Positions 6,549-36,950 of a stretch of DNA of 64,000 bases are shown here, piece after piece. Under the pieces are notes generated by a model that saw only the letters and a program-made list of their open reading frames with translations, did not search any database and was not told the origin of the DNA. Position 1 is the first letter of the stretch; each line of letters begins with the position of its first letter. This stretch comes from Desulfobacteraceae bacterium UBA2245 (lineage in GTDB: Bacteria > Desulfobacterota > Desulfobacteria > Desulfobacterales > UBA2245), in the NCBI GenBank assembly GCA_002347265.1, contig DDYB01000032.1:193389-257388 (forward strand), in the 5' to 3' direction. Both the position numbers and the translations under genes were made by a program.

Positions 6549-6551
6549 ATC

Positions 6552-7025
6552 ATGCCGAAAGTTTTTGAAGGAAAACTGCTTGCACAGAATAAGAAGTTTG
6601 GAATCGTGGTGAGTCGTTTCAATGATTTTATCACCGAGAAGCTGGTCGGCGGCGCTATCGACGCCCTGACGCGATGCGGGGCTGCGGATGCGGATATCGA
6701 GATCGTCAAGGTTCCCGGTGCGTTTGAGATTCCCATGATCGCAAGGAAGATGGCGGGGAAGAAGCGATATGATGCCATTATCTGCCTGGGCGCGGTGATT
6801 CGAGGATCCACGCCGCATTTTGACTATGTGAGCGCCGAGGTTTCCAAGGGAGTCGCCCAGGTGGGCATGGAGGCCGGAGTGCCGGTGATTTTTGGCATTC
6901 TGACCACGGACAATATTGAACAGGCGATTGAACGGGCAGGCTCCAAGGCAGGTAACAAGGGCTGGAGTGCAGCTGTTTCGGCCGTTGAGATGGTGAATCT
7001 GGTTTCGGAACTGGACAAAAAATAA
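6552..7025 (+). CDS. ribH: 6,7-dimethyl-8-ribityllumazine synthase
   Basis: Typical RibH sequence ([25 protein letters not shown]). Confidence 0.95.
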
Positions 7026-9607: not shown

Positions 9608-10033
9608 TTAAAAGGCTCCCAGCTGACAGGGCCTGATTTTGATGCCGATCGTTTCACACACTCCGCTGACGGTCATTTTGGCCACCTTGAATTTCCGGGC
9701 GATGTCCCATGCCGCGCGGCAGGGCAGGCGCTGTTCAATCAGCGCGGCCCGGATCGCATCTTCGAGGCCTTCAATCGGAGAATCTACCGGTTGAACGATC
9801 TTTTTACGGGGTCCGAATCCGAAAATTCCCAGCTGGCAGCGAGCCAACCGTACATTCATCAGATCCGCGGTCTTTCCCACCTGATCTGCAGATACATCAA
9901 GCGCTTTGGCGATTTTAAAGGCCGACGCGCACCAAAGCTCACCATTTTGAAGGTGATTTTCAATCTGATGACGAATCAAAGGGGACAGCACAGCTCCCGG
10001 TTCGTGTTTTTCTGAAAAAGATTTTGAACTCAT
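9608..10033 (-). CDS. hypothetical protein with two tandem HTH-like Cys-containing repeats
   Basis: Internal duplication: LWCASAFKIAKALDVSADQVGKTADLMNVRLARCQLGIFGF versus LPCRAAWDIARKFKVAKMTVSGVCETIGIKIRPCQLGAF. Its stop abuts the mltF-like start. Confidence 0.6.
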   Translation of the reverse strand: MSSKSFSEKHEPGAVLSPLIRHQIENHLQNGELWCASAFKIAKALDVSADQVGKTADLMNVRLARCQLGIFGFGPRKKIVQPVDSPIEGLEDAIRAALIEQRLPCRAAWDIARKFKVAKMTVSGVCETIGIKIRPCQLGAF

Positions 10034-10575
10034 TTTTCGAATCCTTTGAATATCTGAAAATTTTCTTCTTTAAGAAGCGCAACACAGGCATCCACTGCGG
10101 CTTCATGTGAATCCGCCACATTCCGGCGGCATTTTAAACACGTACGCATCAATCATTTTACTCAACCATGAATTCACGAGGCATGAAGACCTTCGGAATA
10201 CCGCTGTTTCAGCTTGCTCAAAGCCCGGCCGACTGCGGGGAGTCGCTATTTTTCTTGAACAAATCCAACGGGTCTGATAGTGAAATACCCGGTTGAACAT
10301 CGATCTTTATCGCTGAAACCTTTGTCGGCGAAGATCGGCGGTATGTTGCCATGTTCATGTGCTCCTTGCCGGGCGCGATGCCCAATGCGCTCTTCCGCTG
10401 CACATTCATTCAGCCGGGTTGCCAAATAACAGAGGTATTTTGTCGATGCTTAGTGCCTTAACTATTGACAGCCTCACAAATATGGGCTTCGGGCTGTATT
10501 TTGTCAACCAATTTCCGGCAAAGGACGGCGGCGGTGTCAGGCGGCTGCGTTTCGGGTTGAAGGAAAGCAAGGTCT

Positions 10576-11661
10576 ATGTATCCAGGCAGGATTCGAAGAA
10601 TTACCCGTGAGATCCGTGTCGGTGGGGTCGCAATCGGTGCGAAGGCGCCCATCAGTGTCCAGTCCATGACCAATACCTTTACCGAGGATATCCAGGCGAC
10701 GATTGAGCAGATCCGCCGTCTGGAAAACGCCGGATGCGAGATCGTTCGCCTGGCAATTCCCAGTGAGGCTGCTGCTGCGGCCCTTGCTGCCGTCAAGTCC
10801 GGCGTTTCGATTCCCATCATCGCGGATATTCATTTTGATTACCGTTTGGCGATTGCCGCCGCCCGTTTTGGCGCAGACGCCTTGAGAATTAATCCCGGCA
10901 ATATCGGCGGCCGCAGGCGAATTCAGGCAGTGGTCGACTGCGCCAGGGATCATGGAATTCCGATCCGCATCGGGGTCAATTCGGGATCTCTGGAAAAAGA
11001 CCTGATTGAAAAGCATCAGGGGGTGACCGTGGATGCGATGGTGGAAAGCGCTCTGCGTCATATCTCGGTGCTTGAATCCATGAATTTTGACGCCATCAAG
11101 GTTTCCATCAAAACCTCGGATGTGGGCCGGACCGTTGCAGCCTACCGGCGCCTTTCCCAGCTTACGGATTATCCGCTGCATCTGGGTGTTACCGAGGCTG
11201 GAACCCTGTATTCCGGCATCGTGAAATCCGCTCTCGGCATCGGGATGCTGCTGTCCGAAGGCATCGGCGATACGCTGCGCGTTTCTCTGACCCGTGATCC
11301 GGCCGAAGAGGTGCGCGTGGGCTACGAGATTCTGAAGGCCCTGAATATCCGGCGCCGAGGGCCGGAGATCATATCCTGCCCGACCTGCGGCCGTTGCCGG
11401 ATCGATCTGTTCGGCATCGTTGAGCAGGTGGAAAAGGCCCTGGAAAACTTCAGAGCGCCGATCAAGATCGCCATAATGGGATGTGTGGTCAACGGACCCG
11501 GCGAGGCCAGGGAGGCCGATGTCGGAATCGCCGGCGGGGACGGTATCGGCATCTTATTTAAAAAAGGCAGGGTGGTTGAACAGTTTCCTCAGGAAAAACT
11601 GGTCCATGTACTGATGGAACATCTTGCGGACTATGCGGATTATGATAAAAATACAAATTGA
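10576..11661 (+). CDS. ispG: 4-hydroxy-3-methylbut-2-en-1-yl diphosphate synthase
   Basis: GcpE family signature (SVQSMTNT, RINPGNIG, CPTCGRC). Confidence 0.95.
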   Translation: MYPGRIRRITREIRVGGVAIGAKAPISVQSMTNTFTEDIQATIEQIRRLENAGCEIVRLAIPSEAAAAALAAVKSGVSIPIIADIHFDYRLAIAAARFGADALRINPGNIGGRRRIQAVVDCARDHGIPIRIGVNSGSLEKDLIEKHQGVTVDAMVESALRHISVLESMNFDAIKVSIKTSDVGRTVAAYRRLSQLTDYPLHLGVTEAGTLYSGIVKSALGIGMLLSEGIGDTLRVSLTRDPAEEVRVGYEILKALNIRRRGPEIISCPTCGRCRIDLFGIVEQVEKALENFRAPIKIAIMGCVVNGPGEAREADVGIAGGDGIGILFKKGRVVEQFPQEKLVHVLMEHLADYADYDKNTN

Positions 11662-18270: not shown

Positions 18271-20337
18271 GTGAATGATATGCCCAGAAATTTCCATTCG
18301 ATTTATTCTCACGGTTTCCTGCGCGTGACGGTAGCCATTCCGAATGTCCGTGTGGCGGACTGCGCCTACAATGTCGAGCGCGCTCTGCTTCTGGCCCGCC
18401 GCGCCTCCGAAAGCCACGCAGCGATCGCGCTTTTTCCGGAACTCTGCATCTCCGCCTATTCCAACGAGGACCTGTTTCATCAGGATGCCCTCCTGGATGC
18501 CGTGCGGTCCGCGCTGTCTTTTCTGATCAGGGAAAGCCGCACCCTTTCACCCGTGCTTCTCGTGGGCGCTCCGCTCAGATTCGAGGAAAAGCTCTTCAAC
18601 TGCGCCGTCGTGATTTACCGGGGCAGGGTGCTTGGAATCGTTCCCAAGACCTATATCCCCAATTATCGGGAATTTTACGAGAAGCGGCAGTTTACCTCGG
18701 GACGGGATGCTTTTGGAAAGGAGGTACAATTTCTGGGAGAAACCGTTCCCTTCGGGAGCGACCTGATTTTTGACGCCATCAACGTTCCTGGTTTTGCCCT
18801 TCACGTGGAAATCTGTGAGGACATCTGGACCCCGATTCCTCCGAGCACCTATGGTGCGCTGGCCGGCGCCACGATTCTTGCCAATCTGTCGGCCAGCAAT
18901 ATTACCGTGGGAAAGACGGACTACCGGAAATTGCTGTGCGCCTCGCAGTCGGCAAAGTGTGTTTCGGCCTATCTGTATTCCGCCGCCGGGCCGGGGGAAT
19001 CCACCACGGATCTGGCCTGGGACGGATACGCCGTCATTTATGAGAACAATGATCGCCTGGCGGAATCTCAGCGATTTGCGGGAGAGGAGCAGCTGATTGC
19101 GGCGGACATCGATCTGGATCGCTTGGTGCAGGAGCGCATGCGGCTGACCAGTTTCAACGACTCGGTCGGCGAGCACCGCCGGCGGCTTGCCCGTATGCGG
19201 CGCATTTCGTTTGAATTCGAGATTCCAGGGGCAACCGTGGGGCTGATGCGCCGCGTGCCGCGTTTTCCGTATGTGCCCAGCGACGCTGCAGTGCTCGACG
19301 AACGCTGCTTCGAGGTTTACAACATTCAGGTTCACAGCCTGATGAAACGGCTTTCCGCAATCGGTATGAAGCATCTGGTCATCGGTATTTCCGGCGGACT
19401 GGATTCCACCCAGTCGCTGATCGTCGCCGCTAAAACCATGGACCGACTGGGGCTGCCCCGGACGAATATTCTTGGATACACCATGCCGGGATTCGCTACC
19501 AGCGCGATCACGAACCAGAATGCCCACCGGCTGATGAACAGCCTTGGCATCACGGCGGGTGAAATCGACATCCGTCCATCCTGCATGCAGATGTTCCGGG
19601 ATATCGAGCACCCCTATGCCGGCGGGGAGCCGTCCTACGACATTACGTTTGAAAACGTTCAGGCCGGGGAAAGAACCTCCCATCTTTTCCGTCTGGCGAA
19701 CCTGCACAATGCCATCGTGCTGGGCACCGGCGATCTGAGCGAGCTGGCCCTGGGCTGGACAACCTACGGGGTCGGGGACCAGATGTCTCATTACAACGTC
19801 AACGCCTCTGTGCCCAAGACCCTGATTCAACACCTGATCCGATGGATCATCCGCACCGGCCAGTTTGACGAGGATACCGGCAGGGTGCTTCAGTCCATTG
19901 TGGACACCGAGATATCCCCCGAACTGATTCCGGATGAAAACGGCGCCTGCGACAAGCCGGCGCAGCGGACGGAGTCGGTGATCGGGCCTTACGAACTTCA
20001 GGATTTCAATCTGTACTATACGCTTCGATTCGGGTTCAGGCCGAGCAAGGTGGCGTTTCTGGCGCAACATGCCTGGGGCGAGAAATCGCAAGGAGCCTGG
20101 CCTGAATTTCTGCCGGCGGACAAATGCAACGAATATGACCTGACAACCATCAAAAAATGGCTTGAGGTGTTTCTCTATCGCTTTTTCAAGACCAGCCAGT
20201 TCAAAAGGACGGCCATGCCGAATGGCCCCAAGGTGGGATCGGGCGGCTCGCTTTCCCCTCGCAGCGACTGGCGTGCCCCGAGCGATTCCGAGGCCCTTGT
20301 GTGGCTGGAAGAATTGCGGAACAATGTACCCGGATAA
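18271..20337 (+). CDS. nadE: glutamine-dependent NAD+ synthetase (long form, nitrilase-like domain + synthetase domain)
   Basis: N-terminal CN-hydrolase domain ([14 protein letters not shown]) and a C-terminal SGGLDS PP-loop. Confidence 0.92.
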
Positions 20338-20515: not shown

Positions 20516-20560
20516 ATGCTCTCCACCACCGGGGTATTTATTCCGGGTGGTGGAGAGCAT
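20516..20560. terminator. 15-bp perfect hairpin between convergent nadE and small-protein gene (probable bidirectional terminator)
   Basis: ATGCTCTCCACCACC ... GGTGGTGGAGAGCAT arms at 20516..20530 and 20546..20560. Confidence 0.5.
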
Positions 20561-20610: not shown

Positions 20611-20814
20611 TCACTCCGCCCTTTCTTCTTTGCTGGTTTCAAGGTACATTACCTCGGCGCCGACCGCTTTGGCGATCTGATCAAGCTCCTGCTTCCGGAT
20701 ATGCTCGACGTAGAGTTTCAGATCTATGCCGCAGACGCCGATCACGCGGAACCGGGGCTTTTTTTCTCCTTTTTCAACCTTGCGACGTTCACGAACAAAA
20801 ATTTTTGCACTCAT
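20611..20814 (-). CDS. small conserved basic protein, paralog A (67 aa), unknown family
   Basis: AAGGAG RBS 6 nt upstream of the ATG. It is 36/58 identical, gap-free, to the 71-aa product of 31801..32016 (hand alignment). Confidence 0.72.
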   Translation of the reverse strand: MSAKIFVRERRKVEKGEKKPRFRVIGVCGIDLKLYVEHIRKQELDQIAKAVGAEVMYLETSKEERAE

Positions 20815-20894
20815 GGCGCTCTCCTTTCAAAAAATCGGGTTTGGGGGGCCGGCCTTCAATCAATTGATCTTGATGAAACCGGAATTTATATTTT

Positions 20895-20921
20895 ACATAT
20901 ATATCCTTAAAGGATATATGT
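20895..20921. promoter_or_regulatory. palindromic candidate operator immediately upstream of padR
   Basis: ATATATCCTT-A-AAGGATATAT has perfect 10-bp arms (20899..20908 / 20910..20919), flanked by ACAT...ATGT. It ends 8 nt before the padR ATG. Confidence 0.45.
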
Positions 20922-20928
20922 CAACAAT

Positions 20929-21318
20929 ATGAATCAAAAAAATACAAAAGATCCCGGCTCAGGCAAAAGGCAACGTTATATTCAGCCGTCAATTCTGATG
21001 AGTCTGAAATTAAAGTCTTCCTATGGGTACGAATTAATTCAGGAAATTCAAAAACTGGGGTTTGTGGAAGGATCGGCGCCTCCGGGCATGATCTACCGGC
21101 ACCTTCGGCAGCTGGAGGAGGAAGGCATGGTCTGCTCCGAATGGCATACCGAAGGCGCAGGACCGGCCAGGCGGATCTATCGCCTGACCCCGGAAGGCGA
21201 TGACATGCTCTATTCCTGGATCCAGTACATGGAGGATCAGGCCCGAAAACTTAAAGATTTTACCGAAGGGTACTATCGGATAACGGGCTGCCAAGGCACA
21301 AGCCATTCAATCGAATAA
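20929..21318 (+). CDS. PadR-family transcriptional regulator
   Basis: Winged-helix PadR pattern (ILMSLKLKSSYGYELIQEI...GMIYRHLRQLEEEGMV...RRIYRLTPEG). Confidence 0.85.
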   Translation: MNQKNTKDPGSGKRQRYIQPSILMSLKLKSSYGYELIQEIQKLGFVEGSAPPGMIYRHLRQLEEEGMVCSEWHTEGAGPARRIYRLTPEGDDMLYSWIQYMEDQARKLKDFTEGYYRITGCQGTSHSIE

Positions 21319-21365: not shown

Positions 21366-21880
21366 CACCACCGTTATTTTTTCCTTCGGAATCTGTTTTT
21401 TGAATCCCCTTGCGTACCTGTAGCGGGATGAAGCAGCCCGCCTGAATGCCATTGTTGTACGCATTGGTGGTCACTTTTCCATTCACAGGGTCGAAATATT
21501 TGCCTGCATCTGTCAGTACCGAAGCCTGATGTATGCTTTTCTGTCGGAAAGCATTCCAGACATATGATCCTTTCTTCCAAACGGTTCAGAAAAAATTTCT
21601 GAGTATCCCGACCCTATTGGCCCAACAATTAGCCTGATTTCACCAGAGCGTTCAACAGATGATGATTTTTAGTTATTATTGGTAATTTTGGGTAATTAGT
21701 TAACTTTGCATTGACATGAGCAAACATATAAGTTTAAAAAAACACGAATATCGGCATGTATTGATGGCGTGACCGTTGCTATGGCCTTTCAGCCGGATTG
21801 AAAAAAAGCGGCATGTCATCCGTGAATGGGTTTGAACCCGAGACATCCAAACCGAAGAATTTGGTTTGTGGGAGGGAAAA

Positions 21881-23884
21881 ATGAGATTTGCGTGCAAGAT
21901 AGGGATGACTCTGATTCTCGGATGGTGCCTGGCGTTCCCCGCGCCGGGTTTTTCGAAAACAACGGAGGAACAGACGGAAGCCTACACACTGGGAGAGGTG
22001 GTGGTCACTGGAGAGCGGGAAGGCGTGGAGGCTGTGGGAACGGTCCGCGAAATTACGGCTGCGGATATTCAGCGCAATGGGGCCAGAACGCTGGACGAGG
22101 CTCTTGACCTCCTGCCGGGCATTCAGGTCCGGACGGGCAATGACGGAGTTCCCCGCGTCGATATGAGGGGCTTCCGTTCCAGGCACGTACTCCTGCTGCT
22201 CGACGGCATTCCCTTCAACTCCACCTCCGACGGTCAGTTTGACCCGACGACGATTCCCACGGAAAATATCGCCAGAATCAAAGTCTCTTACGGAAATCAT
22301 TCGGTGCTTTACGGGGAGGGCGGACTCGGCGGAGTCATCAATATCATCACCAAAAAGGGAACTGAAGGTATTCAGGGAAAGGTGTCGGCCGAGGCTTCCG
22401 AACGCAACAAGTGGCTGGGCCGTTTCAACCTTTCCGGGGCAAAAGATTCGGTGGATTTTTTTCTCGGGGGCAGCCTGATGGATTCGGACGGGTACCCTCT
22501 GTCGGATGATTTTGAAGAAACTCCTCACGAGGACGGGGGCCTGAGAGAAAACAGCGACCGGGAATCCGGCAATCTGTTTGCCAATGTCGGTTATAAGGCC
22601 ACCGACAGCCTGTCGCTGGGTCTTGTGTATAATTACCTGAAAGGCGAATACGGCAAGCCGCCGTCGACCATCGACAAGTCTATGGATCCGGATTTTGCCA
22701 AAAATCTCAAGTATGAACGGATGGATGACATCGAAGGAAACAGCGGCCAGGTATCTTTCAACTGGGATAACGGATCGCCTTTGAATCTGAGGGGTTGGGC
22801 ATATGCCAACCAGCAGGACGAGGAAACCAATTGTTACGATGACAACCGGTACAACAGCCAGAAAGCCAAGGGCGCATTTCATGAGGAAGCCAGAACGACC
22901 ATTTCCGGGGCAAACCTTCAGGGCGGTTGGGACATGGGTTCTGCAGGCCAGCTGACGATGGGACTCTCCCTGGCCGGGCAGGAATTTGAATCCTCCGGAT
23001 ATGAAATTCTGGATAAAAAGGGGACCAAAGGGTCTTTGGCGCTGGATAAAGAGCTTGATACGTATTCCGCTGCCCTGGAATACGAGGTCAATCCGCTGGA
23101 TTCACTTGGAATCACAATCGGGTACGGGCATCACTGGCTCGACAAGGAGGAGGGCAGCGACGACGATGACGGATCATTTTTGATCGGTGCCTACTATGAT
23201 CTTTTGCAGGATACAAGGCTTCGGGCATCCGTTGCCAGAAAAATTCGTTTTCCGTCCATCAAACAACTTTACGATGCGCCCAATGGCGGCAACGTAGATC
23301 TGACAACGGAAAGGTCTATGAATTACGAACTGGGCGTCGAGCAGCATCTGCCGATGAACAGCCGGATGACGCTGACCGGATTCTGGATCGATGTGGATGA
23401 TTATATTGAAAAGAATATTTACGCATCAGAAAATTTTGAGAACTATGAAGAATACCGCTTCAAGGGTTTTGAGCTGACAGCGGAAACCCGATTCATCGAG
23501 AACCTCATGCTCAGGGCCGGATATACCTATATGGAGACGGAGGACCGGTCGGCAGGCACGTTGAAAGATGAACTTCAGCACCGCCCGGAGCACAAGATCA
23601 CGCTGGAAGCAGGCTATGATTTCGATTTCGGTCTGTCGGTTTATGCGGCCCTGCTGCATGTGACCGACCAGTATTTTTACTCCGATACACTGACTCCGCC
23701 GGATAACAAAAGAGCGCTTAACGACTATACCGTGGTGAACCTCAGGCTCAGTCAGAAGCTGCCGAGCAGCGGTGTGAGCCTGTACGCTGGCGCGGACAAC
23801 CTGTTTGATGAGGATTACGAGGAAAGCTACGGGTCACCTCGGGAAGGACGGACGATGTATGCCGGAATTGAGTTCGAGTTCTGA
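21881..23884 (+). CDS. TonB-dependent outer-membrane receptor
   Basis: GGGAGGG RBS, signal peptide, TonB-box/plug (TLGEVVVTGERE, IKVSYGNHSVLYG), beta-barrel ending in YAGIEFEF. Confidence 0.88.
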   Translation: MRFACKIGMTLILGWCLAFPAPGFSKTTEEQTEAYTLGEVVVTGEREGVEAVGTVREITAADIQRNGARTLDEALDLLPGIQVRTGNDGVPRVDMRGFRSRHVLLLLDGIPFNSTSDGQFDPTTIPTENIARIKVSYGNHSVLYGEGGLGGVINIITKKGTEGIQGKVSAEASERNKWLGRFNLSGAKDSVDFFLGGSLMDSDGYPLSDDFEETPHEDGGLRENSDRESGNLFANVGYKATDSLSLGLVYNYLKGEYGKPPSTIDKSMDPDFAKNLKYERMDDIEGNSGQVSFNWDNGSPLNLRGWAYANQQDEETNCYDDNRYNSQKAKGAFHEEARTTISGANLQGGWDMGSAGQLTMGLSLAGQEFESSGYEILDKKGTKGSLALDKELDTYSAALEYEVNPLDSLGITIGYGHHWLDKEEGSDDDDGSFLIGAYYDLLQDTRLRASVARKIRFPSIKQLYDAPNGGNVDLTTERSMNYELGVEQHLPMNSRMTLTGFWIDVDDYIEKNIYASENFENYEEYRFKGFELTAETRFIENLMLRAGYTYMETEDRSAGTLKDELQHRPEHKITLEAGYDFDFGLSVYAALLHVTDQYFYSDTLTPPDNKRALNDYTVVNLRLSQKLPSSGVSLYAGADNLFDEDYEESYGSPREGRTMYAGIEFEF

Positions 23885-23911
23885 CGATCAGTTTTCCGGA
23901 GGTTTGTATAC

Positions 23912-25318
23912 GTGAAACCGGTTCTGAATATGGACCGTGTCTCATTCACGTATCCCGGTTCATCCGTTCCCGCCCTCAGCGATCTGTCGTTATCCATGGA
24001 TGCGGGTGAGTGCGTCTGCATCTCGGGGTCTACCGGATGCGGAAAAACCACGTTGCTGATGGCGGTTCAGGGACTGTTGAAAGATGGCGACAGACAGGGT
24101 TCGATTTCCATCCACCCGGTGCTGCCGGGACTGAATTCCGGCATGGTGTTTCAAAATGCGGAAACACAGATCCTGTGCAGCACGGTGGAGGATGAAGCCG
24201 CATTCTGGCCGGAAAATTGCGGAATGTCTGCAGACGACATCCGTTTGGCGGTCGGAGATGCCCTTGATGCGGTGGGGCTGGCGGGACTGCGGAATCGAAA
24301 TGTTGAAGCGCTTTCCGCCGGGCAGAAACATCGTCTGACGATTGCCTCCGTCCTGTCGATGAAGCCGGGTTTGATTCTCATGGATGAACCCTGCGGACAA
24401 CTTGACGCTCCCGGAAAGCGGCAGCTCATCGAGATACTGAACTATCTCAAACAAAGGGGTCATTCCCTGCTGATCGCAGATCATGAACTGGAGCCCTATC
24501 GATCGATTGCCGATCGATTCGTGCTGATGGAAAAAGGGCGCATTCAAAGGATTTCAGGGAAATTTCCTTCAGAGTACGAAATGTCGCGGGTTTTCGAAGG
24601 AATCAGCTCGGATCCGAGCTCCCGGTCATTCGGGCCGCCGGCTGTGGAGATCAGGAATCTTCAGGTAGCCGGGCCGGAAGGGGATCTACTGATTGATCAG
24701 CTGGATCTCACCGTCAGGCGTGGAGAGTTTGTTCATATCTACGGGATAAACGGATCCGGAAAGTCCACCTTTCTCAAGTGCGTCTGCGGATTTGTCCCTC
24801 CTGAATCCGGAATGATCCGGATTGCCGGAATCAATCGCCCCAGGCCCTGGCAGCTTGCGGGCAAGGCGGCCTTGTTGATGCAGAATCCGCAGCGCCAGCT
24901 GTTTGAAGACACTGTGTTTGACGAGGTCGCTTTTGTTTTGAAAATATCGGGGATGAAGGCGGATCAGGTTCGAGAGCGGGTCATGGAGACCCTGGAGGGC
25001 TGCGCCTTGAGCCACCTTGCCGATCGTTCTCCCCTGACCCTGAGCTTCGGCGAACAGCATCGGGTGGCGCTGGCATCCGTGATTGTTTCCGAACCGGAGG
25101 TGCTGCTGCTGGACGAGCCTTTTGCCGGTCTGGACGTTAACCGGCGACGCCAGACCATCCGGCAGATTGAAACGATTTGCCGGGACCGGAAAACGGCCGT
25201 GATAATGGCATCTCACAATCCCTTATACGCCGGGCATGGCGCGGATCAATCTCTGGCTCTGGAACACGGCCGTTTCAGTCCGGCGATTTTCAATAATCAG
25301 GATATGTCTCTTTCATGA
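23912..25318 (+). CDS. ECF-type ABC transporter, fused duplicated ATPase (EcfA-EcfA', CbiO-like)
   Basis: Two full ABC cassettes: GSTGCGKTT/LSAGQKHR/LILMDEP and GINGSGKST/LSFGEQHR/LLLDEP. Confidence 0.88.
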   Translation: MKPVLNMDRVSFTYPGSSVPALSDLSLSMDAGECVCISGSTGCGKTTLLMAVQGLLKDGDRQGSISIHPVLPGLNSGMVFQNAETQILCSTVEDEAAFWPENCGMSADDIRLAVGDALDAVGLAGLRNRNVEALSAGQKHRLTIASVLSMKPGLILMDEPCGQLDAPGKRQLIEILNYLKQRGHSLLIADHELEPYRSIADRFVLMEKGRIQRISGKFPSEYEMSRVFEGISSDPSSRSFGPPAVEIRNLQVAGPEGDLLIDQLDLTVRRGEFVHIYGINGSGKSTFLKCVCGFVPPESGMIRIAGINRPRPWQLAGKAALLMQNPQRQLFEDTVFDEVAFVLKISGMKADQVRERVMETLEGCALSHLADRSPLTLSFGEQHRVALASVIVSEPEVLLLDEPFAGLDVNRRRQTIRQIETICRDRKTAVIMASHNPLYAGHGADQSLALEHGRFSPAIFNNQDMSLS

Positions 25319-26004
25319 GTCTGAGTGCGTTTCAAAGAATCGGCTGGCAGTTCAGCGCTGTTGATTCCAGGCTTCACCGAATCAGCGCGGGCTGGAAAAT
25401 GGCGGGCATGCTCGCGATGTGTTCGGCGGCTTTTGTCGGGAAAAGCTTTCCAGCCCTGCTGGCACTGCTGGTCCTCAATGTCATCGGTTACCGTCTGGGG
25501 CGCGTGAAAGCCGTTGAAATGTGGAGAGACATGCGGTTTTTCATGATCCAGACAATGATCGTGGTAGCGCTGTATGTTCTGCGGGACGGAATTTATGATG
25601 GGGTGCTGCCCGGCCTGCGAACATCTCTTCAGATCCTGCTGTTTTTCATGCCGGGCGCTCTTTTTCTTCGCGTGACCCCGTCTTCCCAGCTGATGAGAAG
25701 TCTGCGCCGCTGGCTGCCGGAGCGGGTCGCATTTTTCGTGTTCATCAGTTTTCGTTTCATTCCGTATTTTGCAAGGGAGATATCCGACATATCCATGGCA
25801 CAGCAGCTTCGGGGCGCTCGAATCGACAAGCATTCCCTGGCCAATCCCCGAAACTGGCCGGGGCTGTTTCACTGCCTGATGGTTCCCCTCATGATACGGG
25901 TCATGAAAACCGCCGAGGATGCGGCGTTGTCGGCAGAGGCCAGAGGCTTTGGAAAAACCGGCCGTTCGCATTCCAGTTTTACAGTTGCGAAGGAGTGTGA
26001 ATGA
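25315..26004 (+). CDS. ECF transporter transmembrane T component (CbiQ/EcfT family)
   Basis: Polytopic protein with the C-terminal coupling motif region ...AQQLRGAR...ALSAEARGFG. It overlaps the ATPase gene by 4 nt. Confidence 0.8.
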   Translation: MSLSAFQRIGWQFSAVDSRLHRISAGWKMAGMLAMCSAAFVGKSFPALLALLVLNVIGYRLGRVKAVEMWRDMRFFMIQTMIVVALYVLRDGIYDGVLPGLRTSLQILLFFMPGALFLRVTPSSQLMRSLRRWLPERVAFFVFISFRFIPYFAREISDISMAQQLRGARIDKHSLANPRNWPGLFHCLMVPLMIRVMKTAEDAALSAEARGFGKTGRSHSSFTVAKECE

Positions 26005-26570
26005 AATCATCCGATGATCATCTGCTGTGGGGAATGTTCAGCCTGCGGGAGGCCCTGTACCTGTCCTTCTGCGCGATTTTTATCGTGATCGCCAAGGCGG
26101 TACTGCGGCTTCACCTGCATGTGACGGGCCACAGCATGGTGTTTACCATGTTTTTTATGATTCTTGCGCGGGGTTGCGTACAGCGCAAAGGCGCAGCAAC
26201 ATTTGTCGGGTTGATCGCCGGCGTCATGTGTCTTGTGTTCGGCATGGGCGCAAAGTCCGGCCCGCTGGTGATTCTCAAGTTTCTTCTGCCGGGAATTGTG
26301 ATCGATGTCGCTGCAATCCTGTACCCTCTGCTTGCCCAGCGCTATGTTGCCTGCATTATCGTCGGGGCGGTCGCTGCGGGCAGCCGGGTGATCATACTCG
26401 GCCTGGTTGATTGGCTTGTCGGCATAGACCGGGAACTGATTTTGCAGCATATGGTTCTTTTGTCCTTTATGAATATGGGGTTCGGTGTGATCGGAGGCGC
26501 CATGGTTCCGCCGGTGGCAAGACGTCTGGCCGCCCACGGCCTGATTCCATCCGCCGGACCGAATCCATGA
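26001..26570 (+). CDS. small polytopic membrane protein, putative ECF substrate-capture (S) component
   Basis: 189 aa with about 5-6 hydrophobic helices, translationally coupled (ATGA overlap) to the T component. No family was recognised. Confidence 0.55.
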   Translation: MKSSDDHLLWGMFSLREALYLSFCAIFIVIAKAVLRLHLHVTGHSMVFTMFFMILARGCVQRKGAATFVGLIAGVMCLVFGMGAKSGPLVILKFLLPGIVIDVAAILYPLLAQRYVACIIVGAVAAGSRVIILGLVDWLVGIDRELILQHMVLLSFMNMGFGVIGGAMVPPVARRLAAHGLIPSAGPNP

Positions 26571-26659: not shown

Positions 26660-27397
26660 ATGAGAGTATTTCTGGGTTTTGACGACACCGACACGATCGA
26701 TGCGGACCGGGGAACCGGCAAGCTGTCCAGGTGGTTCGGGTATGAACTGCCCGAAGAGGTCCGCCTGTGGGCCGTGGTGCGCCAGCAGCTTCTGGTTCAT
26801 GAGGATATACCCTACACCTCCCACAACAGTTCGGCCTGCGTGGTCATGGATGCTCCCGATGGCTATCCTTCGGACCGCATCATCGACCGGGCGGTCCGTC
26901 ATCTCCAAGCTCATTATCTGGAAGGAAGCGATCCGGGAATCTGCATGGCATGCGAGGGTGATCCGGGGCTATCGGAGCTGATGAATTTTGGAATTTCATG
27001 CACCCGGCGCGTGGTCTCTCAAAAAGATGCCCTTCAGGCGACTTCGTGCGGCCATATTCACCTGTCCGGACATGGCGGCACCAATGACGGGATTATTGGG
27101 GCTGCCGCCGCTGTGGGTTTGACGGCATCCGGCTGGGCAGGGCGCTTTATAGAGTTCGGCAGGCTCCGTGAATTTCCGGATCCGGTGACCGTATCGGAAC
27201 TGGAGCAAAAACAAATCCGGGTCATGTCTCTTGAAAAAAATGCAAACCAGCCGTCTCCCGAAGACCGGGTGATGACCCATGGCTGGCTTCGTCCCCGTCT
27301 GATCGGCGGATATCCGGTCGTGATGGTCAAACACATTCAAGAAGGCGTATGGGAAATCGTCAGCGGCAGATCGCACAAAAAGAAATCGGAGGAATGA
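26660..27397 (+). CDS. stand-alone protein resembling the N-terminal kinase (TCKD) domain of archaeal TiaS
   Basis: MRVFLGFDDTDT start, DIPYTSHNSSA and GIIGAAAAVG segments parallel the TiaS motifs recalled from memory (GIDDTDS, NPxIPYKTRGNGA, GLIGALAAVG). Confidence 0.55.
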   Translation: MRVFLGFDDTDTIDADRGTGKLSRWFGYELPEEVRLWAVVRQQLLVHEDIPYTSHNSSACVVMDAPDGYPSDRIIDRAVRHLQAHYLEGSDPGICMACEGDPGLSELMNFGISCTRRVVSQKDALQATSCGHIHLSGHGGTNDGIIGAAAAVGLTASGWAGRFIEFGRLREFPDPVTVSELEQKQIRVMSLEKNANQPSPEDRVMTHGWLRPRLIGGYPVVMVKHIQEGVWEIVSGRSHKKKSEE

Positions 27398-27620: not shown

Positions 27621-27661
27621 ATGCTTTAACAATGCCCGAAAATAACAGGTGGCAGTGGATC

Positions 27662-28000
27662 ATGTCAAAAACACGGATGAATACGCGGGAAGTCGCGGAA
27701 TATTCGATGTCGCCGATAAACAAGGTCTATGCCATAGTCAAATCCAGGCTGTTTCCGGCCACGCGGATAACCGGAAAGCGGCTTTTCCCCAGAAATCTAA
27801 TTGACGAATATGCCCGGTCCGTTTTTTCGGAGTCGAGGCAGAGAAACCGGAATACGGTGCTGGGTCAGAACGCTTTTTTTGAAAAGTCGGTGCAGATTTT
27901 GATGGCGGTTTTCCATGACCCGGCTTTCCGTCCGCGGGTCGTGGGAATGAGCGGCTATGACTTTTCCGATTCCGGACAGATTATTGGTTCTTCCACCTGA
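27662..28000 (+). CDS. excisionase/MerR-like HTH_17 DNA-binding protein
   Basis: MNTREVAEYSMSPINKVYAIVKSRLFPATRITGKRLFPRNLIDEY fits the HTH_17 pattern. The start is ambiguous (27632 or 27662). Confidence 0.55.
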   Translation: MSKTRMNTREVAEYSMSPINKVYAIVKSRLFPATRITGKRLFPRNLIDEYARSVFSESRQRNRNTVLGQNAFFEKSVQILMAVFHDPAFRPRVVGMSGYDFSDSGQIIGSST

Positions 28001-28092
28001 AATCCTCGCTGAAACCAGCGCGTGCCGTTAGCAAAAAGATAACAGGGGACGCATCCAGTTAAAAATTAAACGGAAGAAAGGAGATGTATTCC

Positions 28093-28947
28093 ATGAAAAG
28101 GCTGTTTATTTATCTTTTTATGTTTCTCTGGATAGGGTTTCCAGGAGCGGCAAACGCCCTTGACGGCAGTCAGTTTATTCTTCTGTCCTCAACCATCGGC
28201 CCGATCGATTCCGGCATTGTCGATGTTCTGGAAAACCAGTTTGAAAACGAAACCGGCATCCGGGTGCGCCATGTCGGCGCCGGGACAGGGGCGGCGTTGA
28301 ATATTGCCCGCAAAGGCAGCATCGACCTCGTGATGGTCCATGCCAAATCCCTGGAGGAAAAGTTCATTCAGGAAGGTTTTGGGACCCGGCGAATTCCTCT
28401 GATGTATAACGATTTCGTTCTGGTCGGCCCTGCCTCGGATCCTGCCGGCATACGGGGAATGAAAACAGCCGCGGAAGCGCTTCGCCGGATTTCGGAGAAA
28501 GGCGTCTCCTTTATCAGCCGGGGGGACAAGTCGGGAACGAACGTGGCCGAGATGGAACTCTGGGAAAAGGCGGGGCTCAAGCCCTCCGCGCCCTGGTACG
28601 CCATTTATGAAAAGGGGTCCGAAGGCAATTCCGCCACATTGAAGTATACCAACCAGCAGGAGGGTTATACGGTTATTGACAGGGCCACTTATCTCGCCCT
28701 GAAGGATCAGATTCAACTGGTTATCCTCGTCGAAGGCGACGAAGCCATGCTGAACTACATCAGCCTTATCCCCGTGGATCAGAAAAAATTCAAAACGGTC
28801 AACGCGACCGACACGATGCGTTTTGTGAACTGGCTGACCGACCCGGAAAAGGGACAGGCCGTCATCAAGGGCTTCGGAAAAGATAAATACGGCGCCCCCC
28901 TGTTCTTTCCCAATTCGGAAGACTGGCAAAAAACTAAAGGAAAATAG
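28093..28947 (+). CDS. TupA-family periplasmic oxyanion-binding protein, divergent paralog
   Basis: Signal peptide and SRGDKSGTN and NDFVLVGP motifs shared with TupA, but SSTIGPIDSG replaces the TTTSTQDSG anion-binding loop. Confidence 0.8.
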   Translation: MKRLFIYLFMFLWIGFPGAANALDGSQFILLSSTIGPIDSGIVDVLENQFENETGIRVRHVGAGTGAALNIARKGSIDLVMVHAKSLEEKFIQEGFGTRRIPLMYNDFVLVGPASDPAGIRGMKTAAEALRRISEKGVSFISRGDKSGTNVAEMELWEKAGLKPSAPWYAIYEKGSEGNSATLKYTNQQEGYTVIDRATYLALKDQIQLVILVEGDEAMLNYISLIPVDQKKFKTVNATDTMRFVNWLTDPEKGQAVIKGFGKDKYGAPLFFPNSEDWQKTKGK

Positions 28948-29068
28948 CATATTGTCAATCTGTCATGCTCAATTCGACGCCAAAAAGGTGCGAACACTCT
29001 GCCCTTTAGAGGTATTTTTTGACCAATTTATTTGAATGGATCACAAAAATTTATTAAGGAGAATGAAA

Positions 29069-29956
29069 ATGAAGCTCAAAAAGTTAGCAACCTGTTTCCG
29101 CTGTCTGGGATTTTTTGCACTCCTTTGCCTGATCACCGGTCTGGCAACCGCGCCGGCTGCTTTTGCGGCTGAACCGGCGCAGAAAAACATTATTCTGGCC
29201 ACTACGACCAGCACTCAGGATTCCGGCCTTCTGGACGCCCTGATTCCGATTTTCGAAAAGGAAACCGGTTATTTTGTCAAAACGATCGCCGTCGGTTCCG
29301 GTCAGGCCATGGCCATGGGAGAGAAGGGCGAAGCAGATGTCCTGCTGGTCCACTCCCCTGCCGCGGAAAAAAAATTTATGGAAGCGCAAAACGGGATCAA
29401 CCGCCGCCTGGTCATGCACAATGACTTCGTGATCGTCGGTCCTCCCGCCGATCCTGCCGGCATCAAGGGCTCCAAGACTTCTCCGGAAGCTTTTATGAAG
29501 ATTGCCAATACCGGCAACCTGTTTCTTTCACGGGGCGACAACTCAGGAACGCATTCCAAGGAAAAGGGAATCTGGAAAGCCGCCGGGCTTAACCCGGAAG
29601 AGCAGCCTTCGAAGTGGTATCAGCAGACCGGACAGGGCATGGGCCAGACCCTCAATGTCGCGGCCGAGAAACTGGGCTATACCCTCACCGACAGGGGAAC
29701 CTGGCTTGCCCTGCAGAAAAACCTCGGGCTTCCCATTCTCATGGAGGGCGATCCGCTCCTGCTGAACATCTATCACGTGATCGATGTCAATCCGGCCAAG
29801 TGGCCGAAAGTCAATGCACCCGGCGCCCGTGCTTTTTCCGACTTCATGGTTTCGCCCGCGACCCAGAGCATCATCAAAACCTTTGGCGTGGACAAGTACG
29901 GTTCTCCTCTGTTTTTCCCGGATGCGGACAAGAAAGTGGAGGACCTTGGAAAATAA
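29069..29956 (+). CDS. tupA: tungstate ABC transporter substrate-binding protein
   Basis: Signal peptide, canonical ATTTSTQDSG, SRGDNSGTH, HNDFVIVGP. AAGGAG RBS 7 nt upstream. Confidence 0.88.
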   Translation: MKLKKLATCFRCLGFFALLCLITGLATAPAAFAAEPAQKNIILATTTSTQDSGLLDALIPIFEKETGYFVKTIAVGSGQAMAMGEKGEADVLLVHSPAAEKKFMEAQNGINRRLVMHNDFVIVGPPADPAGIKGSKTSPEAFMKIANTGNLFLSRGDNSGTHSKEKGIWKAAGLNPEEQPSKWYQQTGQGMGQTLNVAAEKLGYTLTDRGTWLALQKNLGLPILMEGDPLLLNIYHVIDVNPAKWPKVNAPGARAFSDFMVSPATQSIIKTFGVDKYGSPLFFPDADKKVEDLGK

Positions 29957-30655
29957 ATGGAACTGATTCTTGAAGGCATCCTGAAGGCCATAGCGCTGCT
30001 TGTTTCCCTGGATCCGGAAGTCCTGGGAATCACTGCGCTCTCCCTGAAAATTTCAGGAACAGCCACCCTGATCAGTCTTTTTCTCGGCGTTTCAACGGGA
30101 ACCGTGGTGGCCCTCACCCGGTTCCCGGGCCGGAAACTAGTGGTCAGCCTGATCAATACCGGCATGGGGCTGCCGCCGGTGGTGGTGGGTCTCTTTGTCA
30201 CGATCTTCCTGTGGCGAAACGGGCCGTTGGGCTTTCTGCAAATCCTCTACACGCCCACGGCGATTATTCTTGCCCAGGCGATCATTGCCACCCCCATCAT
30301 CAGCGGAATCAGCCTGGCCGCAATGCAGAACCTTCCCGCCAACCTGCGTCTTCAGATCCTGGCACTCGGGGCTACCCGAATTCAGATGTTCTGGCTTCTC
30401 ATTCGGGAAGCCCGTCTGCCCCTGCTGGCCGCCGTCATGGCCGGATTCGGCGGGATCATTTCCGAGGTGGGGGCCTCCATCATGGTGGGCGGCAATATCA
30501 AGGGCTATTCACGGGTTCTCACCACAGCCACGGTCATGGAAACGGGACGGGGAAACTTTGACGTGGCCATTGCGCTGAGCGCCATTCTCTTGCTGCTGGC
30601 CTTTCTGATCAACTTTCTGCTGACACGGATCCAGCAGCGGGAGCGTCCCCGATGA
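29957..30655 (+). CDS. tupB: tungstate ABC transporter permease
   Basis: Binding-protein-dependent permease fold, immediately after tupA. Confidence 0.88.
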   Translation: MELILEGILKAIALLVSLDPEVLGITALSLKISGTATLISLFLGVSTGTVVALTRFPGRKLVVSLINTGMGLPPVVVGLFVTIFLWRNGPLGFLQILYTPTAIILAQAIIATPIISGISLAAMQNLPANLRLQILALGATRIQMFWLLIREARLPLLAAVMAGFGGIISEVGASIMVGGNIKGYSRVLTTATVMETGRGNFDVAIALSAILLLLAFLINFLLTRIQQRERPR

Positions 30656-31752
30656 CGGCCGCCGGTCCCCTTCTTCAGGTCAAAAATATCGTGGTGAAGC
30701 GGGGCGGAATTCCCGTTCTGGATATCCCCGACTTCAGGATCGAGCGGGGGGAGGTTCTGTCCCTGCTCGGACCGAACGGCTCCGGGAAATCCACGCTGCT
30801 TCTGACCTTGTCCAGCCTGTTGAAGCTGCACCAGGGCAAACTGATCTTCAAGGGCCGGGAGATTGACGGCCGCCGGAGCGAGCTGGACTATCGACGGCAG
30901 ATTGCCGTTGTATTTCAGGACCCGCTTCTTTTGGATACGACGGTGCTGGACAACGTGGCCTCCGGCTTGAAAATCCGGGGAATGGAAAAGGCGGGCCGTT
31001 TGCGGATCGCGGCGGAATACCTGGAACGCCTGGGAATCGCCCATCTGGCCAAACGATCCGCATCCAAACTCTCCGGTGGAGAGGCCCAGAGAACCAGTAT
31101 CGCCCGGGCCTTTGCGACCCGCCCGGCCATTCTTTATCTCGACGAACCCTTTTCCGCTCTGGATCCGCCCACGCGCGAAGCTTTGATCTCGGATCTCACC
31201 CGCATCCTCCGTGAAACGGACACCACGGCGGCCATTGCCACGCACGATCAGATGGAGGCCATGCGCCTTTCCGACCGCATGGCCGTTATCCAGCAGGGAA
31301 AGATCGCCCAGGCGGGCTCCGCGGAAGAGGTGATGAATCATCCGGTCAATGAATTTGTCGCCTCCTTTGTCGGAATGGACACGGTCCTGACCGGCAGGGT
31401 CCTGGAAAACCATAACAAGCACAGAATGATGATTGCCGTCGGCGATCGGGAGATCGAGGCCGTGGGGAATTTCCCTCCGGGAGAGCAGGTCCTGTGTTGC
31501 ATTCGTCCCGAAAACGTAACTCTCTCCACGGATTCACCCGAAGAACATAGCAGCGCCCGAAACAATTTTTCGGGCCGGATTGTGCGCATCGCACCCCACG
31601 GGCTTTTCTACCGCGTTGATCTTGACTGCGGTTTTGAGCTCATCTCCTACATCACCCGCATATCGCTGGACAGCCTGGCGCTCCGGGAAGGCCGGAAAGT
31701 CAAGGCCTCCTTCAAGGCCACCGCCGTCCATGTGATACGGAAATCGACATGA
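30652..31752 (+). CDS. tupC: tungstate ABC transporter ATP-binding protein with C-terminal TOBE domain
   Basis: GPNGSGKST, LSGGEAQR, LYLDEP, then a SARNNFSGRIV... TOBE-type tail. Confidence 0.88.
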   Translation: MTAAGPLLQVKNIVVKRGGIPVLDIPDFRIERGEVLSLLGPNGSGKSTLLLTLSSLLKLHQGKLIFKGREIDGRRSELDYRRQIAVVFQDPLLLDTTVLDNVASGLKIRGMEKAGRLRIAAEYLERLGIAHLAKRSASKLSGGEAQRTSIARAFATRPAILYLDEPFSALDPPTREALISDLTRILRETDTTAAIATHDQMEAMRLSDRMAVIQQGKIAQAGSAEEVMNHPVNEFVASFVGMDTVLTGRVLENHNKHRMMIAVGDREIEAVGNFPPGEQVLCCIRPENVTLSTDSPEEHSSARNNFSGRIVRIAPHGLFYRVDLDCGFELISYITRISLDSLALREGRKVKASFKATAVHVIRKST

Positions 31753-31800: not shown

Positions 31801-32016
31801 ATGGCAGGTAGAATTTTTTACCGGGAACGCCGGAAGGTCGCCGAAGGGGAAAAGAAGCCGCGGTTCACTCTGGTCGCCGTAACGGGTGTTGATCTCACCT
31901 TCTATCCGAAACACATGCGCAAACAGGAACTGGAACAGATTGCCGAAGCGGTTGGGGCGGAATTGATTCTGCTGAAAGACGGCGAAAAAGGCGAGGAAGT
32001 GGAAGTCACGGAATAG
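31801..32016 (+). CDS. small conserved basic protein, paralog B (71 aa), unknown family
   Basis: AAGGAGG RBS 7 nt upstream. Paralog of 20611..20814. Tightly packed between tupC and the MoSto-like gene. Confidence 0.78.
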   Translation: MAGRIFYRERRKVAEGEKKPRFTLVAVTGVDLTFYPKHMRKQELEQIAEAVGAELILLKDGEKGEEVEVTE

Positions 32017-32032: not shown

Positions 32033-32863
32033 ATGGGACTTTGGCGCGAAAGGGACGGACGACGTCTGCATGTAAAGAGTAAACTGATGGGGGAAAGTCT
32101 GATCAGCAAATCGTTTATGGAAAGTTTCACTGTTGCTCCGCAACGGAGGCTTTTCCCGGATGTGAACATTATCAAGATCGGAGGTCAATCCATCTGTGAC
32201 CGGGGCGTCAAGGCCCTTCCCCCGATAATTGAAGAAATTGTGGCGAACAAGAAAGAGCACAAGATGCTCATCACAACAGGAGGCGGGACCCGCAGCCGGC
32301 ATATTTATTCCATTGGCCTGGAACTGGGCATGCCGACGGGCATCATTGCCAAATTCGGCAGCTCCATCTCGGAACAGAATGCGCTGCTGGTGTCCACACT
32401 GCTGTCTTCCTGGGGCGGAATCAAGATCGGACATGATGAGGTCATCAAACTGTCAACCTACTTCGCTCAGGGCTGCATCCCCGTCATGCACGGGATGCCT
32501 CCCTATGATTATTTCGCTTTGCCGGCAAAAGGATGGCGCATCCCCATTCACCGAACGGATGTAGGCACCCTGATTCTGGCGGACCTGATCGGAGCACGCA
32601 ACTGTATCTATGTAAAGGATGAAGAGGGGCTGTATACGGATGATCCCAAAAAGAATTCCGATGCCGAATTCGTCCCCGAAATCAGCGCGTCGGAACTTCT
32701 GGCACAGGACTTTGACGATTTGATCATTGAACGGCCCTGCCTTGAGATTCTGCAGAACAGCGAGGTTATCGACAGCATTCAGATTGTCAACGGCCAGCAT
32801 GCGGGCAACATCACCCGGGCATTGAAGGGCGAACATGTGGGAACCATAATTCATAAAGGATAG
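32033..32863 (+). CDS. molybdenum storage protein (MoSto, MosA/MosB)-like amino-acid-kinase-family protein
   Basis: The amino acid kinase fold (IIKIGGQS, LITTGGGTRSRH) and the C-terminal GEHVGTIIHKG closely parallel the Azotobacter MosB sequence as recalled (GEHVGTLIRTG). GGAGGGAG RBS. Confidence 0.78.
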   Translation: MGLWRERDGRRLHVKSKLMGESLISKSFMESFTVAPQRRLFPDVNIIKIGGQSICDRGVKALPPIIEEIVANKKEHKMLITTGGGTRSRHIYSIGLELGMPTGIIAKFGSSISEQNALLVSTLLSSWGGIKIGHDEVIKLSTYFAQGCIPVMHGMPPYDYFALPAKGWRIPIHRTDVGTLILADLIGARNCIYVKDEEGLYTDDPKKNSDAEFVPEISASELLAQDFDDLIIERPCLEILQNSEVIDSIQIVNGQHAGNITRALKGEHVGTIIHKG

Positions 32864-34335: not shown

Positions 34336-34562
34336 TCCCCTGAGAAAATTTTATTGACCAATTTCATATCGTATGCAATGAGTTTCTGTCAAATGACAAT
34401 TAAAAACGTCATAATTGCATAAATTATACTTCAAACATTATATGATGTTGTTTTGGTCCAAATTGCAACAGCAGTTTTCAAGCGGTCAGCCCGAATGGCA
34501 TCGATCATCGAAACAGACGCCGCATGCCATTCAGACTGCCTCAAGGGAGAAATTCACAGGAA

Positions 34563-36944: not shown

Positions 36945-36950
36945 TTCGTT

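Follow-up and report, generated by a model that had tools for sequence, protein, structure and literature searches.

A family of small conserved proteins encoded beside MoSto-like storage genes and behind a predicted PadR operator: a possible accessory factor of tungsten and molybdenum storage in anaerobic bacteria

What is the role of a protein of 67 amino acids whose gene is divergently paired with padR at the head of a cluster for a TonB-dependent receptor and an energy-coupling factor (ECF) importer? This question is raised by a stretch of 64,000 nucleotides from Desulfobacteraceae bacterium UBA2245 (contig DDYB01000032.1), referred to as the window below, which contains two genes of the same family, designated paralog A and paralog B. 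The original prediction had considered the family to mark the start of metal-import loci. The analysis presented here identified a new small-protein family within a variant of the known MoSto storage system, which points to tungsten and molybdenum handling and not to a marker of import loci. MoSto of Azotobacter vinelandii is a cage of the MosA and MosB proteins holding polyoxomolybdate or polyoxotungstate clusters. The reading that we favour, with a probability of about 0.42, is that the small protein, tightly regulated and probably abundant, assists a single-subunit tungsten/molybdenum store of the MoSto type as an accessory partner and has PadR as its repressor.

Paralog A is located on the minus strand (20611..20814) and its translation is a canonical member of the unnamed family. 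An AAGGAG ribosome-binding site (20821..20826, minus strand) lies 6 nt before the ATG, and the intergenic region shared with padR comprises 114 bp (20815..20928). Downstream, a hairpin with 18-nt arms of 94% complementarity (20516..20560; RNA minimum free energy -42.9 kcal/mol, z = -6.0 versus shuffles) lies between A and the convergent gene nadE (18271..20337). A clean U-tract does not follow this hairpin, which is likely a bidirectional transcript end with a predicted terminator function. The elements described in the original prediction are all present; A also appears to be monocistronic, as had been stated, with a regulatory region common to A and padR. Paralog B (31801..32016, plus strand) codes for 71 amino acids and has its own GGAGG site. 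It is a divergent member of the family, with 62% identity to A over 58 residues (tblastn, E 4e-22) and a median identity of 57% to the family. The description as a small basic protein holds for A, with an isoelectric point of 9.4, and not for B, with 5.9. The charge layout is common to both, the N-terminal half being basic (about +7) and the C-terminal half acidic.

Aligned at the nucleotide level, as had been suggested for the pair, A and B differ at 14 first, 11 second and 37 third codon positions over 58 aligned codons, with a pN of 0.23 and a saturated pS of 0.78. This synonymous excess revealed that A and B are genuine protein-coding genes under purifying selection and not a non-coding repeat. 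The family to which they belong is large. A word-indexed search identified 687 clusters at 90% identity, nearly all with a length of 66-72 amino acids and all labelled hypothetical, and a profile search run exhaustively on 1.84 billion representatives gave 167 clusters at 50% identity. The members found by the profile search are single-domain proteins of 34-215 amino acids with variable low-complexity charged tails, and no domain fusion hinting at a function was found among them. In a scan of one genome per species, relatives were present in 290 genomes, mostly of Desulfobacterales, Syntrophobacteraceae and Desulfatiglandales, and in some of Syntrophomonas and Gelria. A divergent branch of the family occurs in Anaerolineales-type (Chloroflexi-type) genomes, with proteins of about 88 amino acids that carry YLPRG after the last strand (loci L092, L093 and L094). 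A reading as a non-coding repeat or chance open reading frame might draw on the small size and on the lack of an annotation or name in any source; given the third-position substitution bias with its saturated synonymous sites, the length-conserved homologs with a conserved ribosome-binding site in all these clusters and a confident fold prediction, its probability is negligible. The claim of a real paralogous protein family of unknown function was thus borne out by the codon-position test and the number of homolog clusters.

Among 30 family members from several orders, 18 positions are invariant, including the basic residues R7, R9, R10, K11, K18, R20, H37, R39 and K40. The family-wide signature reads KIFVRER..V..G...PRF.vVav.G.dl..y..H.RK.El..iA...gAE.v.L; the divergent branch does not share the two lysines in the basic loop. 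An AlphaFold model with a mean confidence (pLDDT) of 81 shows the order strand-strand-strand-helix-strand. The small protein is read as cytoplasmic, with about 60 structured residues and a variable charged tail after the predicted fold. Neither A nor B matched a Pfam family at E <= 10, no Pfam domain was present in any of the 687 clusters, and NCBIfam gave no match for the small protein. A search of PDB sequences with the family profile returned only noise (thermosome, E 0.07), nothing relevant and no similarity to MosA or MosB, and a Foldseek search against the PDB gave nothing better than E 0.2. The best Foldseek matches were chains of ribosomal protein S16, and an S16-like fold was rejected on their values (E 0.2-0.9, TM score of about 0.3, root-mean-square deviation 7-9 A). 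A likeness to CsrA/RsmA seen by eye (IFVRERR/ILTRR; HIRKQE/VHREEI) was also rejected, since hhalign against a hand-typed three-sequence CsrA alignment gave a probability of 2.7% and Pfam showed no CsrA match. Full-text literature searches yielded no paper describing the family or linking MoSto with PadR, and nothing relevant on S. fumaroxidans and molybdenum storage or on DUF134 and molybdenum. The small proteins constitute a previously unnamed, strongly conserved and widely distributed family without any known relative.

The genomic neighbourhood of the family was analysed by tblastn with the window proteins as queries, which sees only families present in the window. The counts refer to the best-scoring 80 of the 290 loci (numbered with the prefix L), a sample tilted to A-like Desulfobacterota; denominators of 35 refer to loci in which the small gene has 9 kb or more of sequence to either side. 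A MoSto-like gene was identified within 600 bp downstream of the small gene in 68 of 71 loci, convergent in 63 and co-directional in five, and a divergent padR within 400 bp upstream in 68 of 75. The trio of PadR, small gene and AA_kinase was also present in independent contigs by precomputed Pfam annotation. Across loci, the median identity to A is 70%, compared with 62% for PadR and 50% for the MoSto-like protein of the same loci. The usual cassette consists of an HTH_17+PBP_like regulator and tupABC or modABC, followed by a TiaS-like gene, with padR convergent to these, the small gene divergent from padR, and the MoSto-like gene convergent to the small gene. Homologs of the TiaS-like open reading frame of the window were found in 28 of 35 loci, beyond padR. 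The cultured Syntrophobacter fumaroxidans MPOB has the cassette, adjoining a gene for the molybdate transporter MOT1, and in L007 genes for molybdo/tungsto-enzymes adjoin it. In S. fumaroxidans, the small protein is WP_041439553.1, and the neighbouring MoSto-like protein of 286 amino acids is encoded at about 330.7-331.5 kb of CP000478.1.

Two further designs were identified. In the Firmicutes Syntrophomonas and Gelria, the small gene and the MoSto-like gene form a bare operon in which about 20 nt separate the two genes and a regulator is absent. In the Anaerolineales-type branch, the small gene is followed by a DUF134 gene in an overlapping frame and then by a convergent MoSto-like gene, in surroundings with tupA/tupB or with MOT1 and an ECF module. 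The pairing with MoSto is the universal part of the cassette and persists across the three designs. In the window, the cassette is split: A retains padR and the operator and faces nadE, not MoSto, while B is located between tupC and the sole MoSto-like gene, without padR, operator or any other adjoining regulator. The arrangement without an adjoining MoSto gene, found for A and in L010, is accompanied by a second copy of the small gene beside MoSto 11 kb off.

The MoSto-like gene of the window (32033..32863, plus strand, co-directional with B) codes for a protein of the amino-acid-kinase fold. A phmmer search against the PDB gave MosB at 1e-69, MosA at 6e-49 and UMP kinases at about 1e-7, and for the S. 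fumaroxidans protein MosB at 8e-62 and MosA at about 2e-45. Judged by these matches, the gene beside the small gene is a true homolog of MoSto of the A. vinelandii type. The MoSto-like proteins form two clades, a co-directional one with 61-72% identity to the window gene and a convergent one with about 50%. A division of the two into MosA-like and MosB-like proteins was rejected, since both are closer to MosB. In L014 (Desulfobacterales AnMBR.bin174, about 9200-11100), both clades flank one small gene: tupC and MoSto type I come first, then padR convergent to these, the small gene divergent from padR, and MoSto type II convergent to the small gene. This pair might form a two-subunit cage like that of Azotobacter, though both types are closer to MosB. 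At the convergent 3' ends of small and MoSto-like genes (L011-L089), the median gap is 43 bp (range -17 to 381), mostly without a strong hairpin. Antisense read-through from an induced small gene into the MoSto-like gene could occur there, as would suit a reciprocal switch; in the operon-type loci, however, both genes are expressed together, so that a layout for such a switch is not universal.

These neighbourhoods bear directly on the view that the family is tied to metal import, marking or controlling the head of transporter loci like those for the TonB receptor and ECF importer or for Tup. A and padR do stand at the head of the TonB-receptor/ECF cluster in the window and in L010, Tup or Mod binding-protein or permease genes lie within 10 kb of the family in 22 of 35 loci, and a homologous ECF module is found near the cassette in L094. 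However, when homologs flanking such transporters were counted, as had been suggested, a TonB-dependent receptor was near the small gene in only 3 of 35 loci and an ECF T or S component in 1 of 35, this one being L010, a 94%-identical relative of the window. Furthermore, B does not start the tup locus, as had been assumed, but ends the tupABC operon, 48 nt past the tupC stop and 16 nt ahead of the ATG of the MoSto-like gene. The sole operator of the window does not precede transporter genes, and about 550 bp, with a hairpin that resembles a terminator, lie between padR and the TonB-receptor gene. In Syntrophomonas, the 20-kb locus gave no Tup, Mod, ECF or TonB-receptor match beside the pair of small gene and MoSto. 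The synteny counts thus largely refute a role as import-locus marker, which we consider highly improbable. The part of the claim that survives is that the distribution of the family is strongly non-random with respect to metal-handling genes, with MoSto-like genes in 68 of 71 and Tup/Mod genes in 22 of 35 loci.

The second constant element of the cassette is the control region. The padR gene (20929..21318, plus strand, divergent from A) codes for 129 amino acids with a Pfam PadR match of 2.3e-17; its best NCBIfam match is PhaQ (6.7e-21), with 75 bits versus a cutoff of 139 bits. Two palindromes had been reported for the region between A and padR, and both are present: a perfect palindrome ATATATCC-TTAAA-GGATATAT at 20899..20919, and ATCAATTGAT at 20859..20868; GGCCGGCC also lies in this region. 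The ATCAATTGAT palindrome is kept only in the closest relative, L010, and not across the family. The former palindrome is the predicted PadR operator and, in a scan allowing up to 3 mismatches, the only such site in the window. It fills the 17-nt spacer of a predicted sigma-70 promoter of A (20896..20924, minus strand), formed by TTGACA at 20924..20919 and TATATG at 20901..20896. An alignment of 71 upstream regions revealed this design family-wide: TTGACA abuts ATATATCC-N5-GGATATAT, the right arm of which enters a TATAyT-like hexamer 17 nt after TTGACA. In essentially all loci TTGACA flanks the palindrome on the side of the small gene only, and it is therefore read as a -35 box and not as a part of a symmetric site; together with the -10-like hexamer it would act as the promoter of the small gene.

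TTGACA, palindrome and -10-like hexamer are kept in 67 of the 70 loci with padR and are absent where padR is absent. In terms of co-occurrence, 67 loci have both operator and padR, five have neither, three have padR only, with degenerate sites, and none has the operator only. In 1.09 Mb of sequence from the 80 loci, scanned with up to 3 substitutions, 74 matches to the palindrome were obtained, 69 of them upstream of the small gene. The canonical PadR box, known from PadR sites of Bacillus and Lactococcus, is ATGT-N8-ACAT. This box is absent here, the core being ATATATCC-N5-GGATATAT; the flanking ACAT...ATGT in the window has the reverse arrangement, and the ATGT on its right is not shared by the loci in general. 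On the opposite strand, padR starts a few to 40 nt past TTGACA, and a promoter-like site for padR, TTGATC-17-TATATT, is present at 20864..20892. By its position, the operator would overlie the transcript start of padR itself, and one dimer could shut both genes. We infer from this layout that PadR binds the palindrome and acts as a repressor. No second PadR-type operator was found in the 64-kb window, at the TonB-receptor/ECF or the tup genes, so that a control of these genes by PadR is without support. No Rfam family, riboswitches included, was detected at E <= 1 in the region of 18-40 kb of the window. An AAAGGAG or AGGAGG sequence before the start codon is kept in nearly all of the 71 aligned regions, and this strong conserved ribosome-binding site fits an abundant, stoichiometric small protein.

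In the DUF134 branch (L092, L093 and L094, about 5900-6700), TTGACA-17-TATAAT is followed by a different conserved palindrome, TGGGCATATGCCCA, which is probably the first clue to the operator and target of DUF134. Here the regulator is swapped, DUF134 for PadR, and the target is unchanged, which speaks for the small gene as the controlled output. The same facts can be turned around, so that the small protein would be a regulatory partner, namely a co-repressor, anti-repressor or metal-delivering sensor of PadR and DUF134, comparable to CopZ feeding copper to CopY, or else a nucleic-acid binder. A transcription-factor gene directly adjoins the small gene in two independent designs, and in the DUF134 branch the stop codon of the small gene and the start of DUF134 overlap, an indication that the two are translated in a coupled manner and may form a complex. 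The very basic N-terminal half (about +7) and the weak top fold matches to ribosomal protein S16 would also suit such a role. However, the small gene is paired with MoSto without an adjoining regulator in the Firmicutes, as is copy B in the window, and a common target of two unrelated regulator families is a simpler assumption than a partner that binds both. In addition, the S16 likeness is not significant (E >= 0.2, TM score of about 0.3), and that to CsrA reached 2.7% in hhalign. We regard this role as quite improbable.

A different possibility is that the small protein itself holds the metal. It would then be a stand-alone cytoplasmic tungstate/molybdate buffer or chaperone, an analogue of the Mop/Tub proteins on an unrelated fold, with the invariant Arg, Lys and His residues as ligands, perhaps at subunit interfaces, and would hand oxyanions to the store or to cofactor synthesis. 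For this speak the strong tungsten/molybdenum genomic context, the residues R7, R9, R10, K11, K18, R20, H37, R39 and K40, which are plausible oxyanion ligands, and the strong promoter and ribosome-binding site, which suit an abundant buffer. By our own reasoning, sulfate reducers must also prevent free molybdate from building up, since it makes ATP sulfurylase waste ATP. The Mop/Tub molbindins, among them Tub of Eubacterium limosum, consist of one TOBE domain (about 7 kDa) and serve as stores of molybdate or tungstate, and the size of 67-72 amino acids, the cytoplasmic location and the link to transport genes are alike (PMC11980592). In contrast, the small protein has no TOBE domain (PF03459 / PF08402) at E <= 10, though the same Pfam scan detected TOBE in TupC and ModC, its predicted strand-strand-strand-helix-strand order is not a TOBE barrel, and its gene lies beside MoSto and behind a PadR operator; it could be a functional analogue at most. 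Two lysines of the basic loop are lost in the divergent branch, and a free-standing buffer does not predict the adjacency to MoSto (about 95%) over that to transporters (about 60%). This alternative is rather unlikely.

The favoured reading, a regulated accessory partner of the store, can be described as follows. The small protein would be a stoichiometric partner of the single-subunit MoSto-like cage and would aid the loading, retention or release of stored tungstate or molybdate. Its binding to the MoSto-like protein and the direction in which it acts on storage are inferred from synteny. The amount of the small protein would be set by the dedicated repressor: PadR, bound to the palindrome in the spacer of a near-consensus promoter, would shut the small gene and padR until a signal releases it. 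In the genome studied here, A would have kept padR and the operator with no storage gene beside it, and B would have lost both and would be read together with tupABC and the MoSto-like gene.

Several points weigh against this reading. The small gene and the MoSto-like gene are convergent in most loci and not co-transcribed, and adjacency alone is no proof of partnership. The predicted fold gives no functional clue (best Foldseek E 0.2). Two unrelated regulators, PadR and DUF134, adjoin the small gene, and the frame overlap with DUF134 also fits a role as co-regulator. The typing by window proteins in the best 80 of 290 loci overrepresents A-like Desulfobacterota. As far as the literature goes (PMC6448029), MoSto of A. 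vinelandii works without such a small protein.

In comparison to known storage systems, the neighbouring gene resembles MoSto over the full length (MosB 1e-69), and the context of tungsten/molybdenum handling is alike. The loci described here differ in that they contain a single MosB-like gene, compared with the mosA-mosB pair of Azotobacter, and in that they also code for a small protein and for a repressor of their own, additions that have not been described for Azotobacter. A similar logic is known for Bfd, a small protein with a [2Fe-2S] cluster on four cysteines, which is encoded beside the bacterioferritin cage, is separately regulated and mobilises the store. Alike are the size of about 65-70 amino acids, the gene position directly beside that of a metal-storage cage and the tight regulation of its own. 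In the family alignments, however, no cysteine is conserved, so that the analogy would be one of logic only and not of homology. In Bacillus megaterium, the PadR-family repressor PhaQ senses the storage polymer and controls PhaP, a small storage-granule protein. Here too, a repressor of the PadR family goes with a small and seemingly abundant protein linked to a storage system; the PadR of the window, with 75 bits against the cutoff of 139, is not a PhaQ ortholog, and the storage material is different.

Among the other genes of the window, the TiaS-like open reading frame orf245 (26660..27397, plus strand; 245 amino acids) has no Pfam match. Its AlphaFold2 model (pLDDT 86) resembles the kinase domain of the archaeal tRNA-modifying enzyme TiaS (Foldseek, 5xob, E 3e-8, probability 1.0), with weaker matches to the pterin pyrophosphokinase HPPK (E about 6e-3). 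The orf245 family comprises 2851 clusters, and its genes usually come last in ABC operons for tungstate/molybdate, at the 3' end, and converge on padR (28/35). The protein may stand for an ATP-dependent reaction on the way from uptake to storage or to cofactor synthesis.

The operon which runs into B (28084..31752, plus strand) consists of a tupA-like gene, tupA, tupB and tupC, with the Pfam domains PBP_like_2, BPD_transp_1, ABC_tran and TOBE. Its tandem TupA-like genes ahead of tupB (28084-28947 and 29036-29956, plus strand) match NCBIfam TupA at 3.4e-50 and 4.4e-72, that is with 171 and 243 bits, below the equivalog cutoff of 400 bits; a doubling was also identified in L001 and L071. Ahead of the tup genes, a stand-alone HTH_17 open reading frame of 122 amino acids is present (27632-28000, plus strand). 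In related loci, HTH_17 and PBP_like are fused in a TunR/ModE-like regulator. A separate regulator gene, of the HTH_3+PBP_like type, follows the MoSto-like gene on the minus strand (33190-34335). The upstream HTH_17 regulator may be truncated or split in this window. Between the HTH_3+PBP_like gene and modABC (35446-38066) lies a gene for a DUF364 protein ('putative heavy-metal chelation'; 34524-35288, plus strand). Both Tup and Mod systems are found within 10 kb in the window.

The TonB-dependent receptor and the ECF-type importer, an unusual pairing, are encoded between padR and orf245 (21866-26570, plus strand). The importer consists of a fused double ATPase, a CbiQ-like T component and an S-like component of 189 amino acids, and no riboswitch, for cobalamin or otherwise, was found ahead of this cluster. 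The homologous ECF module in L094 (8800-12270) shows 28% identity for the S component (E 2e-9) and 29% for the A component (E 6e-46). In this distant lineage, the ECF module, a faint TiaS match and a MOT1 molybdate-transporter gene adjoin the cassette of MoSto, DUF134 and small gene. The substrate of the ECF importer might be related to tungsten or molybdenum.

For the biology of sulfate reducers and syntrophs, the storage of the two metals is of interest, since tungsten and molybdenum enzymes, like formate dehydrogenases, aldehyde oxidoreductases and benzoyl-CoA reductases, are central to these organisms. To our knowledge, how they store and ration tungsten and molybdenum is barely known, and the only well-studied cage-type store is MoSto, examined in one aerobe. 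In 2019, MoSto was said to have no known homologs (PMC6448029), and the tungsten store first described in 2025 is a TOBE protein (PMC11980592). The cassette described here is compact and widely conserved, and couples a MoSto homolog to a small protein, a TiaS-like enzyme and a dedicated repressor whose candidate operator stands out clearly. It adds a new protein family worthy of a name and a defined candidate PadR operator. In its widest and more doubtful form, the scheme would be that of a MoSto-type single-subunit cage in anaerobes, the filling or emptying of which is switched by the small protein, with PadR or DUF134 sensing metal or cofactor status and the TiaS-like enzyme providing a further step from uptake to storage. 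The presence of the cassette in the cultured S. fumaroxidans MPOB makes the question directly testable. If this widest scheme is true, the small protein would represent a class of accessory factors for storage cages that is new, with a logic resembling that of Bfd and bacterioferritin.

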